A DNA stretch of 64,000 nucleotides, from positions 4,800,001-4,864,000 of the forward strand of contig CBDCOX010000002.1 of NCBI GenBank assembly GCA_965219995.1, in the 5' to 3' direction. The notes beneath the pieces are model-generated. The model made no database searches and was not told where the DNA came from. It saw nothing but the letters and a program-made list of their open reading frames with translations. Below, in pieces: positions 4,867-25,691 of the stretch (within the stretch, counting starts at the first letter, position 1; every line of letters begins with the position of its first letter). Origin of the DNA: Candidatus Latescibacterota bacterium (GTDB lineage: Bacteria; Latescibacterota; UBA2968; GCA-2709665). The position numbers were made by a program, and so were the translations under genes.

Positions 4867-5028
4867 ATGACAACAAAGAGGACGAAGGATCGGCGCAAAA
4901 CGGCTCGTCCGCGAGTCAAACCATCGGCGGAAACAGTCGACGAGATTCCTGAGAAACGAAAGCGGGCGCCACTAAACAGCCGCCAAAAGGTACATGGCGG
5001 GCGGAAGTATCTCGATCGGAGCCGATGA
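4867..5028 (+). CDS. Small basic hypothetical protein (53 aa, not in ORF track)
   Basis: SD agaggag, then ATG; MTTKRTKDRRKTARPRVKPSAETVDEIPEKRKRAPLNSRQKVHGGRKYLDRSR*. Confidence 0.45.
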   Translation: MTTKRTKDRRKTARPRVKPSAETVDEIPEKRKRAPLNSRQKVHGGRKYLDRSR

Positions 5029-5115
5029 GGCATCGTGCGCGTTTTTTTGTTGTTCCTCTTCTTCAATTTCTCTCCCGTTTCCTGCCTCGTTCTTCCGCTA
5101 CGCGGTGATCCTATA

Positions 5116-6060
5116 TCACGGCACCTGGGCCCCGACCGTCTCCACGTAGACGGAGAACAGCGACTGGGAGCAGGTCATGAACAGCCTGTTCTTCTTTTCG
5201 CCGCCGAAGCAGAGGTTCGCACAGGGGGCCGGGAGGTGGATCTTGCCGATGAGGGTGCCGTCGGGCGCGAAGCAGTGCACGCCGTCGGTGCCTTCGCCCG
5301 CCCAGCACGCGCCTGCCCACAGGTTGCCGTCCACGTCGGTTCGGATCCCGTCCGCCGAGGCGGGCTCCATGTTCACGAACACACGGCCGCTCGCGAGTCG
5401 GTCGCCATCCACGTCGAACACGCGGATGTGGGTGGGGTATTCGGGTCCGTCGGAGCGCCCGGTGTCGACGATGTATAAGAGCGACTCGTCGGGGCTGAAG
5501 CACAGGCCGTTGGGCCGCTGGAAGTCTGAAACGACAACCGTTGCCTCTCCGGTGTCCGGATCGAGACGGTACACGTTGGTGTCGTTCTCGAATTCGGCCC
5601 GGTGCCCTTCATAGTTCATCAGAATGCCGTACCCCGGGTCGGTGAACCAGATCGACCCGTCCGACCTGACCACGGCGTCGTTCGGCGCATTCAGCGGCCT
5701 TCCCTCAAAGCGGTCCATCAGCACCGTGATCGAACCGTCGTATTCCGTGCGGGTGACGCGACGCGCGTCGTGTTCACAAGAAACCAGCCGGCCCTGGCGG
5801 TCGCGCGTATTCCCGTTTGTGTTGTTCGACGGCTTGCGGAATACCGAGACGTCCCCCGTCTCCTCTTCCCACTTGAGGATGCGGTTGTTGGGGATATCGC
5901 TGAACAGCAGATAGCGGCCGTCCCCGAACCACACCGGTCCCTCCAGCCACCGGCCTCCGGTCCAGAGCATCTCAATGGCGGCGGTCGATAGTTTGTACTT
6001 CGCAAACCGGTCGTCGAGCACTTCGACGCGGCTGTCCGGGTACCTCACGAGATCCGTCAT
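5116..6060 (-). CDS. SMP-30/gluconolactonase family protein
   Basis: EGPVW..DGRYLLFSDIPNNRI, NGNTRDRQGRL, LNAPND, WFTDPGYG, PNGLCFSPDE, DGIRTDVDGN, ANLCFGG. Confidence 0.93.
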   Translation of the reverse strand: MTDLVRYPDSRVEVLDDRFAKYKLSTAAIEMLWTGGRWLEGPVWFGDGRYLLFSDIPNNRILKWEEETGDVSVFRKPSNNTNGNTRDRQGRLVSCEHDARRVTRTEYDGSITVLMDRFEGRPLNAPNDAVVRSDGSIWFTDPGYGILMNYEGHRAEFENDTNVYRLDPDTGEATVVVSDFQRPNGLCFSPDESLLYIVDTGRSDGPEYPTHIRVFDVDGDRLASGRVFVNMEPASADGIRTDVDGNLWAGACWAGEGTDGVHCFAPDGTLIGKIHLPAPCANLCFGGEKKNRLFMTCSQSLFSVYVETVGAQVP

Positions 6061-6542
6061 TTCATTTCTGTCCCTTCATGATGATCCGATTACGTCGGTT
6101 GTCCGACGAGTGATCGCAAAAATCCAATAACATCCGGTTTAACGACTGGTTGGGCGACGGATGATCCGCGACATCACTTACAGCTCCCGCGGCCGCCATT
6201 TCCGCGTTATCCACAGGCAATACACGACGGCAAATTGCACCTCGGAAGCAGTCTTGTCAACGGTTTTTCGGGAAGCCGGAACCTGTCGGCCACCGCCGGC
6301 AGGGTCGGTGGTCGTTAAGGTTGCCACACCTTGACAACTTTTCAGACGCCCTTTATATTGAAAATTAACACCGGTGAAGTTTCCGAAGAGAGCCGGAAAC
6401 CCGCCAACGTGCGCAGTCTTCATGTGGCCGGCCGCAGATCGACGAACAGGTTCCGCCGATCCGTTTCCGGCGCCCTGCGACGACCCGTCACAACCGGCGG
6501 GCCTGGCCCGTTTGCAGCGATTCGATTCGCGCCATCGCCGAT

Positions 6543-19944: not shown

Positions 19945-20110
19945 ATCACTCCCCCTAGAGGGGCAGTCGCAGAAGCCGAGCCGTCCCCTGAGCTTGTCGA
20001 AGGGCCGGCGACGGCTGATCCGGTGGGGGGATTTCAATGCCTCACCATATGCAAGCAGCAGGATTGAACATCTACACATTTTGACCTGAAGTCTTACTGT
20101 AAGGTCTAAA
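19945..20110. repeat. Interspersed repeat R1 copy A (about 165 bp)
   Basis: Colinear with 59705-59903: atcactccccc..gagggg.agtcgcagaagccgagccg...ccctgagc..gtcgaagggccggcgacggctgat.cggtgggggg...gaagtcttactgtaag. Confidence 0.85.
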
Positions 20111-20114
20111 ATGT

Positions 20115-21815
20115 TCAGAGAAGCGTTCGATAGCGATCGAGTGCCACGTGTTTCATGGTCCCGACGAGATGCTTCGATACCATCCGAAAGGCACTATCCA
20201 GACCCTTCGCATATTCCAGGTCCACGATGGCGTTTCCGGATGCTTGGATTTTCCTCCGGGTGGGATTCTTGTAATTGTTGGACAGCTCGACCAATTCATG
20301 AATTCGGGTCCGATCCGAGATAATGATTGGCGCGCAGCATTCGATTGCTCTACCCAGCATCAACGTCGCCAGACGCGACGAATCCGCAGGAAGTTCGTCC
20401 CACACATTCCAGATGATCGGTTGGCAGTCTGCCTGTTTCGCGCGGTCGATCACGCCAAAACACGCGGCTGCATCCAGAATACGATCATTTGGCACAATTC
20501 CGACGTAAACTGATCCGTGGACAGTTTCCACATCACATCCGGTTGCATCCACTGCAACCCATCCCGACCGACTCAGGACTGCCGGATGTTCGTCGATTTG
20601 TCGAACGTGGATTGGCATCTTTGCATTTGCGTTACGTGGATTCTGTAGTCTTGCTTTCGGCAGGTCATCGGCCCGTGGAACCCGATCCCACTCCAATTCT
20701 CCGCCAAGTAAACCCGTATCGAGATCTACAATGTAGATCGTCTCCGATTCCGTGCATTTCGACAATGGAAGTGAATTGCTGGTACCTGCCTTTCTCGCTT
20801 TAAGTTCATTGCCGTCTGGAGAAAACGCAAACGGATGAGTTCTGGTCGTCTTTTGCTTATTGCAATGCAGCGTACACAGTGAGAACATCCGATTCTCTAC
20901 CGCTCTTAGACGAAGAATGGACGACCATTTGATTTCAGAGACATTGTCGTAGCTTGGATTAATCCATATCCGCGCACCGCGTTTTGCTAGAAAACGTGGC
21001 AGAAGACCCAAATATTGGTCGTGACAGATCGTCGTACCAGCCGTCACGCCGGCCAAGTCGAAAGTCGGAAGCATCGAGTTCGGTCTCCAGGCGGGCCTCT
21101 CAAAAGCAACTGCGCATTCCGTCGAATGTTTTACATATATCCGTGAATGCGATCTATCTGGATTCACACGTAACAGGACCTGCCAGGTGCGGCCAGTAGA
21201 GTCGACATTATTGTCGGTCGCGCCGACGAGCAATCGGGCCTCCAGATCTGCAGCGAGTTTTTTCAGTGAGTTGATTCGTTTGGAATCGGACGCGTTAATG
21301 TATCCTTCCGGAAAGAGAACAAAGTCGACGTTTTCGCCTGCAAAGGAGGCGAGGGTAGGAATGACGGGCATTTGCGCATTGTCTCCGCGAGGCACGATCC
21401 CGAACAGCGCGCTGCGGTTTACCTGAGGAAATACAAGTGCCACTCGTAGTACGGAAGCGTTTCGAGCCGCTGACAGTTGTCTTTTCTCTATCGTTTGGCT
21501 CTCCCGAAATGGCTTCTTACCCGGCATGCAATAACCGATACTGCCAATGCTGCCGCCGCATTTGCAGTGAATAACATCGAAGCCAAGTGCGCTGAGAAAG
21601 CCGTTGGACTCAGCACCTCCTGAGAATTCGTATGAAGGTAGAAACTGACCTTTACGAACGTGGTGAGCCACTGCAATGGCGTACTTAGGCGGAAAATGAC
21701 AGCCATCCTTCACCAGGCAGTAGACCCGCGCTTTCCTGTTCGCTGGAACACCGTCACGCCTGATGCGCCGAATTGCCTCCATCAAGTCTTGTTTTGTAAT
21801 GTAAGACGGGATCAT
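20115..21815 (-). CDS. Fusion of a restriction-enzyme-type N-terminal domain and a carbon-nitrogen hydrolase (nitrilase superfamily) domain
   Basis: Glu-Lys-Cys triad motifs VLFPEGY, YVKHS and TICHD, plus RAVEN. The N-terminal ~82 aa (IT..DL.EAI..I..DGVP..R....Y.L...G..FPPKY.I......FSGG.E.N.FL..LGF) resembles N-termini of McrB/McrA-like enzymes. Visibly lower GC than its neighbours. Confidence 0.8.
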   Translation of the reverse strand: MIPSYITKQDLMEAIRRIRRDGVPANRKARVYCLVKDGCHFPPKYAIAVAHHVRKGQFLPSYEFSGGAESNGFLSALGFDVIHCKCGGSIGSIGYCMPGKKPFRESQTIEKRQLSAARNASVLRVALVFPQVNRSALFGIVPRGDNAQMPVIPTLASFAGENVDFVLFPEGYINASDSKRINSLKKLAADLEARLLVGATDNNVDSTGRTWQVLLRVNPDRSHSRIYVKHSTECAVAFERPAWRPNSMLPTFDLAGVTAGTTICHDQYLGLLPRFLAKRGARIWINPSYDNVSEIKWSSILRLRAVENRMFSLCTLHCNKQKTTRTHPFAFSPDGNELKARKAGTSNSLPLSKCTESETIYIVDLDTGLLGGELEWDRVPRADDLPKARLQNPRNANAKMPIHVRQIDEHPAVLSRSGWVAVDATGCDVETVHGSVYVGIVPNDRILDAAACFGVIDRAKQADCQPIIWNVWDELPADSSRLATLMLGRAIECCAPIIISDRTRIHELVELSNNYKNPTRRKIQASGNAIVDLEYAKGLDSAFRMVSKHLVGTMKHVALDRYRTLL

Positions 21816-21970
21816 AATTGATTTAGCTATTGTGTTTTCCCGATTGGGACGAGCGTGCGCTTTGTCGCTAGCGTTGAGTCGGGTGTTACGGGCTGAATTC
21901 TAGCTGATTGGTCAGCCACACGATATTACCGGGGATGGAAATTCGCCATATGCTCATTCCTCCCCACCAG

Positions 21971-22789
21971 TTATGATTCTTGTACCCTGTACCGTATCGC
22001 GTGGTAGTCGTAGTCGCTCGTGACGGGCACGGGTTTTCCGTCCAGGAAGGCCCATCGCCCCACGTCGCACGCGGATGCGCGGACGAACCCGTTGATGTAC
22101 GATCGCCGGGGACGGTCGGTCGTATTCGGCGACGAGCCGTGGACCGTGTAGGACGTGAACATCATCACGTCGCCCGGCAGGGCCTCGCAGGGCACCGCGG
22201 AAGAGACGTCCACCTGCGATTCGACGCTTCCCTTCGCGTAGCGTTTCACCCTCAGGTTGCCCAGCTTGTGGCTTCCCGGGATGACGTGCAGACAACCGTT
22301 CGCGACGGTCGCCGGGTCCACCACGACGATCGTCTGCACATAGTTGTTTGCCTGATCGCGAAACGCGGGCGTGGGACGTACGTCCTGGTGCCACGGAAAT
22401 TCGATTTTCCCGCCCGGCATCTTGAAGTTGATCTGATTGATGAACTGCTTCAACGTCGTTCCAATGAGGGGCGCCAGAAGCGCGGGAAACTTCGGACTGT
22501 TGCGAATCTCCTCGAAGGCGGGATGAACCAGCGCGGGCCACTGGACCTTGCGCAGATATCGTACCGCGTCCGGCCCGGTCATCGGACCGGGTGTCTGCAG
22601 GTGAATATGCACGTCGCGCCGCCTGCCATTCAGGATTTCGTCCGGAAGGTCCCTCCTGGACGCCAGTTCGAGGATATATTCGTAGCCCTCGCGCAGTCGT
22701 GCGATCTCATCCCGCCCGAATACGCCCCGCGCCACGTGATAACCCTGTTCCCGGAAGGCTTCGATGTCTTTCCTGTTGAGCGTCGTCAT
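21971..22789 (-). CDS. Phytanoyl-CoA dioxygenase (PhyH) family Fe/2OG dioxygenase
   Basis: FREQGY, FPWHQD, NGCLHVIPGSH, PGDV....VHGSSPN...RPRR. Confidence 0.92.
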   Translation of the reverse strand: MTTLNRKDIEAFREQGYHVARGVFGRDEIARLREGYEYILELASRRDLPDEILNGRRRDVHIHLQTPGPMTGPDAVRYLRKVQWPALVHPAFEEIRNSPKFPALLAPLIGTTLKQFINQINFKMPGGKIEFPWHQDVRPTPAFRDQANNYVQTIVVVDPATVANGCLHVIPGSHKLGNLRVKRYAKGSVESQVDVSSAVPCEALPGDVMMFTSYTVHGSSPNTTDRPRRSYINGFVRASACDVGRWAFLDGKPVPVTSDYDYHAIRYRVQES

Positions 22790-23101: not shown

Positions 23102-23911
23102 CTATTCCAGTTCCGGCAGGTCAGCCTGGTCGATGAGAACCCTGATCGAGCGTGGACGACGCGCTACCCGTGAGATGAAGCCCTGCTCTTCCAATCGCTT
23201 AAGCATGCTGTTTACGGTTGGAGGCGTAACGCCGAAATAACGCTGTATATCGGCATGGGCGGGCGGAATACCGTTCACCTTGGTGTAGTAATGGATAAAC
23301 GCCAGGTATTGTCCCTGCTTGTAGGTATAGGAATCTGCTACCACGGAATCGTAGAACGCGTCCATGTCGAATTCGGACAGGTACCCGTTGACAAGATCGA
23401 TCGGGAAGTACTCGGGGTCGAAATCGCCGCCATTCCAGTCGATGGTCGCGGAGTGCTCCGGGTGATCGCCGTCCGCCAGGGCCTTGAGGAATTCCGCATA
23501 TCCAGGGCTCCCGCCGACATTCTCGGGCGGACACGATCGCTCACCCGCGAGACACCTGGGTTTGAACTCGTCCGTGTCGGCTTCTTCGATCGCCTCTACC
23601 CTTACCAGGTGTACCCAACTGTCTCCGAGATCGTATTCATAGTGAAACTCGACGCCGACAAACGGGGCGGCCTGCTCGAGCGTGAACAGTTCTTCATCCT
23701 GCAGGTCTTCGCTAAACTCGTCGAACCCCAGGTCGTCCATTCCGTAGGAGGAGTCGCCGATGCGAAACTCATGCGCATGGGAGTTCGTCCACCCCATCAC
23801 GATTTGAAACAACACGTGGAGGTCGCCCAGCGAACTCTCCCCGTCAACGAGGACGCGTCTCCAGATCGGCGGCTCGATGTTCAGCATGGTAATCTTGAGT
23901 TGGTAGATCAT
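23102..23911 (-). CDS. pRiA4b ORF3-family protein fused to a C-terminal LexA-like winged HTH
   Basis: IYQLKITM..IEPPIWRR, MGWTNSHAHEF, YEYDLGDSW.H, GERSCPPENVGG.PGY; tail KQGQYLAFI..Y......PPA.ADIQRYFGVTPPTV..ML..LE..GFISR...RSI; SD ggagga. Confidence 0.85.
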   Translation of the reverse strand: MIYQLKITMLNIEPPIWRRVLVDGESSLGDLHVLFQIVMGWTNSHAHEFRIGDSSYGMDDLGFDEFSEDLQDEELFTLEQAAPFVGVEFHYEYDLGDSWVHLVRVEAIEEADTDEFKPRCLAGERSCPPENVGGSPGYAEFLKALADGDHPEHSATIDWNGGDFDPEYFPIDLVNGYLSEFDMDAFYDSVVADSYTYKQGQYLAFIHYYTKVNGIPPAHADIQRYFGVTPPTVNSMLKRLEEQGFISRVARRPRSIRVLIDQADLPELE

Positions 23912-23939
23912 GCAGACTCCTCCCGCTTCTTTCTCAGTT

Positions 23940-25691
23940 TTATTCCTTCGCGCCATACCGCCTTAGCAGTGCGCCGACGTCCGCTTCCTTCGTTTCGAGA
24001 CGGGCGTATTCCTTGTACCCCTGCGGTTTCTTGCTCCAGGCCAGAGGCGTCGCCCATGGCGCCCCGGCCAGATTCGGATCGGCGCCCGCTTCCAGCATGA
24101 ACCTGGCGAGTTCGGGCCACTCGAAACGTACCGCCATAGCGAGCGGCGACGATTGTCTCTCTCCGCCAAGTACGTTCAAATCAGCCCCACTGTCGATCAG
24201 CTTCTCCGCGAACGTGATTCGATCCTGCTCACCCACGTGCCAGGTAATCTCCGCGGTCCAGTGTAGCGGCGTGAGGCCGCCCTTCTTCTCGCGGGCGTTC
24301 GGGTCGAATCCGCGATCCAGGAGAAGCTCGAAGCAGGAGTAGAAGTGTTCGGCACGGGCATTTCCCGGATTGCCCGGGCACCGCAGCCGCCACATCCGCA
24401 TGGCCAGACACAACACGTCGTGCATTTCGCTCTCCGAAAAACCCGGATTCCGTGAAAGACAGACTGCCACCAGGTCCGGATGCCCGCCATGGACGGCTCC
24501 CTTCAGGACCTCCTTTGCACACGATGGATCGGAACTTACGAGCGCGGCATCGACGGAGACATTGTCGCTGTTCGCGGCGTAGAATCCTGGAGAGGCCCCG
24601 TCGTCGAACCCGGGGAATGCCCCATGTCGCAACAGCAGTTTCTCCATCGCGTCGTTCCCGTTCGCGATCGCCCAGTTCAAGGCGTTGCCGGACGCATCCA
24701 TCACGGTATGCGCCGATGCCCCGTGCTCCAGGAGCAGCACTGCCATCTCCAGATCGTCATTGAGAGCCGCGGCGTGCAGCGGCGCGCCTCGTTCGGCCAC
24801 GGGGTAGCCTTCGTACTTGTCATACGGCGTATCCGGGTCCGCACCCCGTTCCAGGAGGAGGCGCACCACCTCGAGGTGTCCCTTGTCGGCGGCAATCGAG
24901 ATCGGATACGCGTCCATCCCGGGATAGTTCCGGGCACAGTCGTTCACGGCTTCGGGATCGGCATCCAGAATTCTCCGAGCCCCGTCGACGTCGCCGATGG
25001 CGCAGGCAACCCACAGGTCGTATTCGGCGCCGCGTCCCAGCAGAATTCCGCCGATTACCGGCCACAGGGGGCTTGGCGGCGGGTCCCACCCGCGTTTGGG
25101 CCGCGGCCCGAGCGCAAGGTGGACGGGCTTCTTCCCGCGTGCGTTCGACCGATTCGGGTCGGCGCCTCGATCCAGCAACTCCACAACGCCGTCGACGTGG
25201 TGGTTCTCCACGGCTACGTGCAGCGCCGAATCGCCACTCCCGTTCACCGAGAGAACCCCCGGCGGGTCCGCATCGAGCAGTTCCCTCATGGCGTCGATAT
25301 CCCGCCTCCCGGCGGCCTGGCAAAGCAGGATTCCCGACTCCGTCTCTCCCGAGTGCCCGGACCGCCACGCTTCCATCGCATCGGCAACTTCGGCATGCCC
25401 GTGGTGCCGGGCCATGTCGATCGCGGACACGCGCTCCCGGTACGTTATCCGGGTCGGGCTGGCGCCGGCCTCCAGGAGCAGCCTGACCACCTCCCGGCGT
25501 CCCTCGCGCGCCGCGAGGTGGATGGCCTGATAGCCCTGTGGACCGTCCCGACGCGCAAGCTCGGGTTTCTTCACCAGGATGGACCGGACGCGGTCCACGT
25601 CGCCTTCGCGCGCCGCCTTACAGATTTCCGCGACGCCGGCGGATTCATTGTCCCGGGCCGGCCCATTCCTCCGTAGCGTTCTCTTTGCCAT
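23940..25691 (-). CDS. Ankyrin-repeat protein
   Basis: Many ALH.A...G...VV.LLL..GADPN units. Confidence 0.93.
   Translation of the reverse strand: MAKRTLRRNGPARDNESAGVAEICKAAREGDVDRVRSILVKKPELARRDGPQGYQAIHLAAREGRREVVRLLLEAGASPTRITYRERVSAIDMARHHGHAEVADAMEAWRSGHSGETESGILLCQAAGRRDIDAMRELLDADPPGVLSVNGSGDSALHVAVENHHVDGVVELLDRGADPNRSNARGKKPVHLALGPRPKRGWDPPPSPLWPVIGGILLGRGAEYDLWVACAIGDVDGARRILDADPEAVNDCARNYPGMDAYPISIAADKGHLEVVRLLLERGADPDTPYDKYEGYPVAERGAPLHAAALNDDLEMAVLLLEHGASAHTVMDASGNALNWAIANGNDAMEKLLLRHGAFPGFDDGASPGFYAANSDNVSVDAALVSSDPSCAKEVLKGAVHGGHPDLVAVCLSRNPGFSESEMHDVLCLAMRMWRLRCPGNPGNARAEHFYSCFELLLDRGFDPNAREKKGGLTPLHWTAEITWHVGEQDRITFAEKLIDSGADLNVLGGERQSSPLAMAVRFEWPELARFMLEAGADPNLAGAPWATPLAWSKKPQGYKEYARLETKEADVGALLRRYGAKE

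Follow-up and report, generated by a model that had tools for sequence, protein, structure and literature searches.

The stretch of DNA analysed here (hereafter the window, 64,000 nt) comes from a Candidatus Latescibacterota bacterium (GenBank assembly GCA_965219995.1, contig CBDCOX010000002.1, positions 4,800,001 to 4,864,000), and the subject of this analysis is a single gene on its reverse strand, whose 566-residue product (P0001) joins a module known from restriction proteins to a carbon–nitrogen (CN) hydrolase domain. An earlier note, made from the letters alone, had described it as a standalone, lower-GC gene in which a DNA-reading module of restriction type heads a nitrilase or amidase, and had put it forward as a candidate defence enzyme. 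The gene can be divided as follows, with all coordinates given in the window:

20115–21815, reverse strand: whole open reading frame (ORF) of P0001, 566 codons plus stop codon, intact and with an ATG start
21552–21815, reverse strand: N-terminal ScoMcrA-head-like module, residues 1–88 (profile, AlphaFold (AF2) model, Foldseek and VIA-align)
21468–21551, reverse strand: linker and apparent deletion scar, residues 89–116 (alignment and junction comparison)
20664–21467, reverse strand: putatively active CN_hydrolase domain, residues 117–384 (Pfam PF00795 and conserved tetrad)
20118–20663, reverse strand: predicted compact C-terminal pseudo-nitrilase domain, residues 385–566 (AF2, Foldseek, VIA-align and conservation)
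21306–21308 (E170), 21129–21131 (K229), 21024–21026 (C264) and 20895–20897 (E307), reverse strand: catalytic codons, each checked

The low G+C (guanine plus cytosine) content first described was confirmed for this intact ORF (0.517, compared to 0.605 in the remainder of the window), with a dip to 0.49–0.53 over positions 20000–22000 and flanks of approximately 0.60–0.64. The description as standalone held only in part: gaps of 155 bp and 209 bp flank the gene and no neighbour is conserved across loci (see below), but it runs in the same direction as its neighbours, and a scan for promoters and terminators around it gave no signal exceeding that of shuffled sequences.

The hydrolase domain and its likely chemistry

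CN_hydrolase was the sole Pfam domain found in the protein (PF00795, residues 163–337, E = 1.4e-11, 44.7 bits against a cut-off of 23.2), and no nuclease, GTPase or reverse transcriptase (RT) domain was detected with Pfam, PADLOC or NCBIfam models. The three motifs of the E-K-C triad, reported as intact in the earlier note, were all recovered (FPEGY at residues 168–172, YVKHS at 227–231 and TICHD at 262–266). The full tetrad E170/K229/C264/E307 was kept in 47 of 47 aligned relatives, as were the histidine and aspartate that follow the nucleophile in T-I-C-H-D. Judged by these residues, the nitrilase-superfamily domain is catalytically intact.

The closest solved relatives of the catalytic domain were Nit1/Nit2-type amidases (1ems, E = 5.4e-10; 2w1v, E = 2.4e-9), while NCBIfam returned only far-sub-threshold matches to Lnt, Nit1 and NAD synthase (18 bits, cut-off 355–500). 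Pace and Brenner are said to have named Cys-Trp-Glu around the nucleophile, in 2001, as the mark of true nitrilases (branch 1); by this rule the window protein, which has C-H-D, falls outside that branch. Because of the C-H-D nucleophile motif and the Nit1/Nit2-type nearest solved relatives, an amide substrate appears more likely than a nitrile, and the amide half of the amide or nitrile chemistry initially proposed is the one that stands better. According to PMC5500890, members of the superfamily can form C-N bonds by condensation as well as hydrolyse them, and for that reason acyl transfer is a possible reaction of this enzyme as well.

Compared with Nit1/Nit2 amidases and NitFhit (branch 10), which gave the best matches to the catalytic domain and share its E-K-C(-E) chemistry, the protein differs by a tandem of active and degenerate domains and by its restriction-type N-terminus.

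Long and short forms of the family

A word-indexed search, in which 8,000 candidates were scored, yielded 395 proteins at E ≤ 1e-3, and most of the 120 matches listed were 745–790 aa long and covered approximately 80–84% of the query. An exhaustive search of 50%-identity representatives gave 970 matches at E ≤ 1e-3, many of them fragments or single-domain matches to some part of the protein, with 253 at 1e-10 and 50 at 1e-30. Public names of family members were limited to ‘hypothetical protein’, ‘carbon-nitrogen hydrolase family protein’ and ‘predicted amidohydrolase’.

Most relatives are long forms of approximately 760 aa, in which about 215 extra residues lie between the N-terminal head and the hydrolase (alignment A1). 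Motifs C-x-x-C-K, D97, E108-F-D-E-x-Q-H and R-D-E-Q-R-x-W-Y-D were invariant in this insert in 25 of 25 long forms. The best PDB match of an insert profile was the N-terminal nuclease of AbaSI, a type IV enzyme (residues 30–91, E = 0.0028), aligned through a D...E-x-D-E-x-x-H core, and Pfam gave weak, mostly sub-threshold matches to DUF7255, with one head + DUF7255 protein reaching 31.4 bits (cut-off 27). The insert is therefore a probable Vsr/AbaSI-like PD-(D/E)xK nuclease. By this marginal E-value and the motif agreement it may correspond to the Vsr-like N-terminal nuclease of AbaSI/PvuRts1I-type enzymes; unlike those, the window protein has no nuclease, and the long forms carry a nitrilase tandem and no SRA-like reader.

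In the window protein the insert is missing, and a remnant, GYCMPG, aligns to the insert edges. Short forms showed four different junction sequences (P0001/P0002, P0013/15/16, P0018/L007 and P0102) and were nested among long forms, such that the long or short state required 7 changes on a 47-row tree (with L050 scored as long, and L032, L024 and L004 as of unknown state), a count which recombination may inflate, given that P0015 and P0016 share a junction yet stand apart in the tree. On these alignments the nuclease was deleted at least four times independently, and the window copy represents one of the resulting variants. The earlier statement that no nuclease, GTPase or RT domain is present consequently applies to the window copy but not to most of its relatives, which carry the Vsr/AbaSI-like insert that the window copy has lost.

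Whole-gene ratios of nonsynonymous to synonymous substitution rates (dN/dS) were 0.20–0.25 in seven pairs, and per domain 0.12–0.40 for the head, 0.14–0.21 for the hydrolase and 0.23–0.30 for the C-terminal domain; the window copy compared to L007, two short forms with different junctions, gave 0.20. With dS of 0.5–1.6 in most pairs and 2.6 in one head comparison, these ratios are approximate. They indicate that the short form is maintained under purifying selection and is no relic.

This bears directly on the reading of the window copy as a decaying, non-functional remnant of the long form, which we regard as very unlikely. Such a reading would account for the loss of a ~215-aa nuclease domain present in most relatives, for split or truncated copies elsewhere (L004, L008, L023, L037, L039, L043, L044 and L047) and for the fact that the window’s genome contains neither a second copy of the gene nor a separate piece matching the nuclease insert. 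However, the 566-aa ORF is intact and keeps all four catalytic residues, the three domains that remain all show a dN/dS of about 0.2, as does the comparison with another short form, a 75%-identical relative (P0002) keeps the same junction and length, and the nuclease domain went missing in frame repeatedly, with four different junctions, which makes the loss look tolerated or favoured.

A number of copies had an irregular structure. The gene was split into two or three ORFs in L004 (7553–11422), L023, L037, L039, L043, L044, L047, L052 and G008, and truncated copies also occurred; true disruption and assembly frameshift are both possible sources of the split ORFs. In L004 and G008, the head-bearing piece lies ~2.2 kb from the remainder with small ORFs between the two. 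A 1167-aa ORF in L022 (8801–12301) is ~400 aa longer at its N-terminus, possibly through an upstream fusion or an artefact of the ORF start. P0001 and P0002, of the same length and 75% identical overall, share their deletion junction and have heads that are 91% identical, while P0015 and P0016 share a junction and belong to different subclades of the hydrolase tree; mosaicism of this kind in both pairs suggests recombination between copies.

The N-terminal head and the C-terminal domain

Both motifs of the N-terminal module, HFPPKY (residues 40–45) and FSGGAESNGFLSALGF (64–79), were found in the window protein. The module, first described as ~82 aa long, is present but extends to approximately residue 88, where it closes with CKCGG (CxCGG); its conserved motifs are PPKY and GG-E-N. 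A single-sequence phmmer search of the N-terminus against PDB found nothing relevant, and the N- and C-terminal pieces searched alone against Pfam had no match. A head profile built from 20 diverse copies (alignment A2) had one PDB match, ScoMcrA (5zmm residues 4–94, E = 7.6e-4). An AF2 model of residues 1–92 (predicted local distance difference test, pLDDT, 92.6) was closest to the same protein in Foldseek, where the four best matches were 5zmm chains (best E = 7.8e-3, prob 1.00, query template modelling score (TMq) 0.63). Independently of Foldseek, VIA-align against 48,161 chains placed 5zmm_A first at Z = 7.8 (root-mean-square deviation (rmsd) 2.3 Å, 64 residues aligned, 25% identity) and the next row at Z = 3.3, with a weak structural tail of winged-helix/helix-turn-helix (HTH) DNA binders at Z 2.3–3.3. 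Profile and fold thus agree in making the first ~88 aa a homologue of the ScoMcrA head. The label PF26345, a family named ‘ScoMcrA N-terminal’, comes from precomputed annotations, and the identity of the module was deduced from the ScoMcrA matches together with those labels.

Ninety-two carriers of the head were listed when longer proteins were searched with a profile, including 18 with CN_hydrolase and 25 with McrB-type AAA_5, several of the latter also with EVE. Other partners were HNH, MrcB_N, GmrSD_N and AGOG, and ~40 carriers had no other labelled domain; domain names were confirmed by hmmscan on ten of these proteins. Source names included ‘McrB family protein’ and ‘5-methylcytosine-specific restriction protein A/B’. 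The statement in the earlier note that this module normally heads McrA/McrB-type restriction proteins was thereby borne out, both by the ScoMcrA match in all three comparisons and by the fusions to AAA_5, HNH, GmrSD_N, MrcB_N and EVE. In McrB-family and other type IV proteins (EVE-head-AAA_5, head-MrcB_N, head-GmrSD_N, head-HNH), the head likewise stands at or near the N-terminus. McrBC differs in having an AAA_5 GTPase and a McrC partner, whereas the window protein has no AAA match and its gene no conserved neighbour in 59 loci. ScoMcrA itself, the Streptomyces coelicolor type IV enzyme dependent on phosphorothioation or methylation (5zmm), resembles the window protein in its N-terminal head but has SBD, SRA and HNH domains, none of which was detected in the window protein with Pfam, where the effector is a CN hydrolase.

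Presenting the module as a DNA reader, in contrast, went too far. The structure paper on ScoMcrA (PMC6224610) describes this head as small, flexibly attached and of unknown function, and assigns DNA reading to the SBD and SRA domains. DNA reading by the head of the window protein is accordingly a candidate role. The head was mildly basic, with a median isoelectric point (pI) of 9.0 in 20 sequences.

These observations bear on the proposal, carried over from the earlier note, of a DNA-targeted C-N hydrolase. On this view, phage bases that carry an amide or nitrile modification (7-amido- or 7-cyano-7-deazaguanine or carbamoylmethyl-adenine, for instance) would be stripped of it or have it converted; for the long forms one would add that the attached nuclease then cuts the DNA. 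Both the head and the Vsr/AbaSI-like insert have their counterparts in modification-dependent restriction enzymes. AbaSI-type enzymes have their base-reading domain after the Vsr-like nuclease, which is where the nitrilase tandem sits in the long forms; the intact tetrad, the basic pI and the winged-helix/HTH tail of the head are in line with the proposal too. We consider it distinctly unlikely nevertheless. We know of no nitrilase-superfamily enzyme that acts on DNA, and the head is only a candidate DNA binder; the nuclease was lost at least four times and the hydrolase kept, therefore the hydrolase would seem to work without DNA cleavage; and the C-H-D motif, by the Cys-Trp-Glu rule, and the Nit1/Nit2-type structures point to small amides and away from nitriles.

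Two further groups of head-bearing proteins were seen. Proteins of ~560–605 aa (P0275–P0312, P0273 and P0299) share the head module, some with a DUF7255-type (Vsr-like) domain followed by ~280 unlabelled residues; they are probably a type IV-like restriction family that has yet to be characterised, and the likely source from which the long forms took head and nuclease. In Thermococcus barophilus MP, plasmid pTBMP1 (L061) encodes a ‘hypothetical’ head-module protein (4995–6245) within a co-directional cluster with genes for a NYN-domain protein, a type I restriction endonuclease-like protein, RNase J, a class II glutamine amidotransferase, gamma-glutamylcyclotransferase, ADP-ribosylglycohydrolase and a DUF2357 protein; this is a further case in which the head module and amide-bond enzymes occur together, here in a cultured archaeon.

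The C-terminal 182 residues (385–566), overlooked in the earlier note, are conserved across the family, and the nitrilase core together with this domain also occurs in stand-alone ~420-aa proteins without head or nuclease. A context search for these stand-alone proteins matched only generic CN-hydrolase cores, at 24–38% identity over ~80–150 residues. An AF2 model of the C-terminal domain (pLDDT 93.1) had 20 Foldseek matches in PDB at E ≤ 1e-3, all those listed being nitrilase-superfamily enzymes (best 5h8l_I, E = 4.7e-5), with low TM-scores of 0.32–0.44. VIA-align without Foldseek likewise put nitrilase-superfamily proteins in its top 23 rows (Z 8.8–5.1), led by 2w1v_B (Z 8.8, 120 residues aligned, rmsd 3.4), the Nit structure which was also among the best matches of the catalytic domain. 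In a PDB search with the alignment A3 profile, only the nitrilase columns contributed by stand-alone relatives matched, and none of those for the C-terminal domain did. With ~170 aa, the domain cannot accommodate a complete nitrilase fold, and nothing equivalent to the E-K-C order was recognised in it; its GRAxE motif resembles the RAxEN motif of active domains. W469, N470, W472, R489, E492, E507 and K516 were each kept in at least 45 of 47 relatives.

A two-chain prediction of the catalytic domain (alignment A8) against the C-terminal domain (alignment A3) reached an interaction prediction score from aligned errors (ipSAE) of 0.93, compared to 0.01 for the best of 3 controls; this mark was reached by 58 of 80 solved complexes and by 2 of 110 mismatched pairs. 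Runs shared at least 93% of contacts, with partner pLDDT of at least 88. The predicted interface brings residues 230–239, 265–275 and 293–307 of the active domain against residues 444–453, 476–492, 515–520 and 542–566 of the C-terminal domain, so that the post-cysteine and RLRAVE (293–307) helices of the former face the GRAIE helix (485–492) of the latter. Presumably this resembles the two-fold interface of nitrilase dimers. From these models we infer that the C-terminal domain is nitrilase-like and catalytically degenerate, and that it may form an intramolecular pseudo-dimer with the active domain.

Distribution, neighbourhood and candidate roles

A scan of species-representative genomes detected 58 loci, all titled as metagenome-assembled genomes (MAGs), in Latescibacterota, Gemmatimonadota, Acidobacteriota, Nitrospira, Dadabacteria/Thermodesulfobacteriota, Alpha- and Gammaproteobacteria, with archaeal copies in Nitrosopumilus (50% identity) and Aenigmatarchaeota (38%). 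Phylum labels required 11 changes on the tree and were more clustered than when shuffled (mean 21.8), and well-supported branches forced at least two origins each in Acidobacteriota, Pseudomonadota, Latescibacterota and Gemmatimonadota. Among 60 relatives of the window’s genome, the gene was present in 9/14 of the same genus, 0/7 of other genera of the family, 2/31 of the sister family (one of these two matches covering the head only) and 0/8 at class level; the five same-genus absences fell in genomes that are 95–99% complete, two of them single-contig. Most copies in the window’s clade had a GC deficit of -0.07 to -0.09, and L007 one of -0.03. The family is accessory, horizontally exchanged and solitary.

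One locus titled as Gemmatimonadota (L002) has the full syntenic block described below and falls in a 100%-supported clade with Latescibacterota loci; its phylum label or bin may be off.

The head, to which the ScoMcrA paper assigns no function, is also found on an AGOG DNA glycosylase, and a role in repair is therefore possible. In its explicit form, an accessory enzyme of DNA repair or maintenance in which the head binds DNA, the amidase processes amide-type lesions or adducts (formamide, urea or Fapy-type remnants, DNA-peptide links) and the Vsr-like domain nicks beside the lesion, we find it improbable. AGOG is an 8-oxoG glycosylase, Vsr is a repair nuclease, a gene for the repair helicase Lhr lies ~2 kb away on the same strand within a stable syntenic block of the window’s clade, and the GC content of the gene is largely ameliorated. 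Against these stand the absence of the gene from 5/14 near-complete genus-mates and from 7/7 genomes of other genera, its split or truncated copies in several genomes, its occurrence in distant phyla and archaea alike, its integrase and transposase neighbours, the limitation of the Lhr linkage to one clade, and the fact that known head partners are in great majority of restriction type and not of repair type.

Clustering of all ORFs of the 58 loci and the window (59 loci) revealed no conserved neighbour: the commonest cluster was present in 12/59 loci, and most others reflected synteny within one clade. The window and nine loci (L001–L008 and L030) share a block, named here after the window’s copies, in the order BNR_4, ankyrin, PRiA4_ORF3-HTH, PhyH, the gene itself, M14/AstE-like, HAD and Lhr.

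The same data speak to a third alternative, an ordinary metabolic amidase or N-acyltransferase whose head would be a regulatory or oligomerisation appendage without any link to conflict. Its core does resemble Nit1/Nit2-type metabolite-repair amidases and, weakly, Lnt; tandems of nitrilase and C-terminal domain stand alone elsewhere without head or nuclease; and the window neighbours include PhyH, HAD and an AstE/M14-like hydrolase. We nonetheless rate it as unlikely: the metabolic operon that such a role would lead one to expect was looked for and none was conserved over the 59 loci, in most members a nuclease-like domain whose catalytic residues are invariant forms part of the same protein, other head partners are overwhelmingly restriction proteins, and the distribution is patchy and marked by horizontal transfer.

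Flanking genes were further compared in a near set, comprising on either side the two closest ORFs that reach 140 aa, in 39 non-syntenic loci (145/168 ORFs, leaving out five redundant loci, three ORFs of more than 1,150 aa and one more ORF), and a far set of 102 ORFs from these same loci located 6 kb or more from the gene, the only comparator and a rough, internal one. The commonest Pfam families in the near set, led by tyrosine integrase, were Phage_integrase (5), Phage_int_M (4), Arm-DNA-bind_3 (4), HNH (3), three DDE transposase families (2, 2 and 1), Resolvase (2), PDDEXK_1 (2) and SLFN_AlbA_2 (2), and PADLOC models matched DruA (2e-198), ThsB, UzuA, type II methyltransferases (MTases), GajB-like helicases and several PDC candidates, each in 1–3 ORFs. 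The far set contained rve (3), C5 methylase/MTases, transposases, BilB/BilD and Cas5c. Some loci resemble mobile or defence islands; as regards an enrichment of homologs in such islands, one of the checks named in the earlier note, this is suggestive at most.

Taking these results together, we hold with about even confidence that the gene belongs to an undescribed, horizontally spread, single-gene conflict or defence family, with the hydrolase as conserved effector and the window copy as a nuclease-less deletion variant. The conflict role is suggested by the recurrence of the head on McrB, McrA/HNH, GmrSD and EVE proteins, by the AbaSI nuclease as best match of the insert, by the accessory, horizontally exchanged distribution, by the lack of an operon partner, by integrases and transposases near some loci and by the precedent that DRT1 sets for a nitrilase effector. 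The domain anatomy is well supported by the results above; the defence role, the function of the pseudo-dimer, targeting by the head and the class of substrate are all inferred. The family layout comprises a ScoMcrA-type head, a probable Vsr/AbaSI-like nuclease carried by most members, a catalytically intact CN hydrolase of amidase type and a degenerate nitrilase-like domain. The last of these may pack on the active domain through the helices of the nitrilase-dimer two-fold interface, in which case the enzyme would carry its own pseudo-subunit and need no partner. The head, perhaps through binding of nucleic acid or of a partner, would link the enzyme to incoming foreign DNA or to some sign of infection, and the CN hydrolase, kept in all 47 aligned members, would act as the effector by cleaving a C-N (amide) bond. 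That bond could lie in a small molecule that the cell cannot do without, which is what has been proposed for the nitrilase of DRT1, or in an amide-bearing group on DNA. The window’s copy would rely on the hydrolase alone.

Several observations weigh against this conflict or defence reading. In the window and about nine related genomes, the gene occupies a stable syntenic slot among ordinary genes and not a recognisable defence island; near and far flanks were not clearly different, island association being limited to a minority of loci; and tRNA genes lay within 5 kb in 5/39 loci, about the chance expectation. Gene GC tracked host GC (r = 0.84, 35 copies), therefore most copies appear to be long-resident. 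The family was not found in the phage records searched, none of 16 pattern matches in IMG/VR viral contigs was confirmed, and a plasmid search gave only two partial single-domain matches. The link of the insert to nucleases combines motif agreement with an E-value that is marginal, and the two-chain prediction joins parts of one polypeptide whereas nitrilase dimers are solved structures, so that its high score may reflect likeness only. Lastly, the window protein matched 0 families in PADLOC-DB v2.0.0 (E up to 1); this result fits novelty and equally fits a role outside defence.

The nitrilase of DRT1 (UG1, a class 3 UG/Abi RT) provides the nearest functional comparison. According to the 2026 DRT1 structure paper (PMC13275509), DRT1 uses a nitrilase effector in anti-phage defence, nitrilases are uncommon in such systems and have little precedent there, the nitrilase substrate is unknown and oligomerisation of the nitrilase core is essential. 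The window protein is alike in having a nitrilase-superfamily domain as its candidate effector. The parallel drawn in the earlier note nevertheless did not extend to any specific similarity, PADLOC models including those for DRT having given no match, and DRT1 differs in its RT and alpha-repeat domains (none in the window protein, and no RT in Pfam) and in its assembly into tetramers and filaments, in place of which the window’s family is predicted to fill the dimer interface with a built-in pseudo-subunit.

A bolder version of the defence reading, to which we give little credence, would make the protein a single-polypeptide, type IV-like immunity enzyme in which the substrates of a pseudo-dimeric amidase are hypermodified bases with an amide group, or other amide adducts, on the DNA of an invader, and the nuclease is optional and repeatedly discarded. 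If true, de-modification or chemical marking of foreign DNA would be sufficient alone, as the window’s copy would show.

In the literature searched, no paper linked nitrilase or CN-hydrolase domains with type IV restriction modules, described the fusion or mentioned DUF7255; the main text of a McrBC census (PMC11090510) mentions neither nitrilase nor ScoMcrA, and its supplements might list such fusions. Nitrilase-superfamily effectors have entered the anti-phage field only recently, through DRT1. The family described here would offer a simpler, single-protein context for a CN hydrolase, with restriction-type modules, natural variants with and without a nuclease, and a built-in pseudo-subunit that may remove the need for filament assembly, features which together could make the substrate question of nitrilase effectors directly testable. 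It would also give the ScoMcrA/McrB head module a second functional context, and it brings to light the related and equally uncharacterised ~580-aa head + DUF7255 family. Occurrence of the loci in MAGs only, together with only partial matches in sequenced phages and plasmids, may explain why the family escaped screens in model organisms.

Two neighbouring genes of the syntenic block in the window have features of their own. At 23102–23956 (reverse strand), two genes from the 566-aa gene, a PRiA4_ORF3 domain (Pfam E = 2.8e-57) and a LexA/MarR-type HTH are joined in one protein; the gene lies within a second patch of lower GC (0.52–0.57) and has relatives in the same syntenic block of other genomes (clusters c5/c10). 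Its start overlaps by 17 bp with a gene at 23940–25691 (reverse strand) for a 583-aa ankyrin-repeat protein (Ank_2, E = 2.9e-42) with eukaryote-like repeats, which is also kept in the block (cluster c3).

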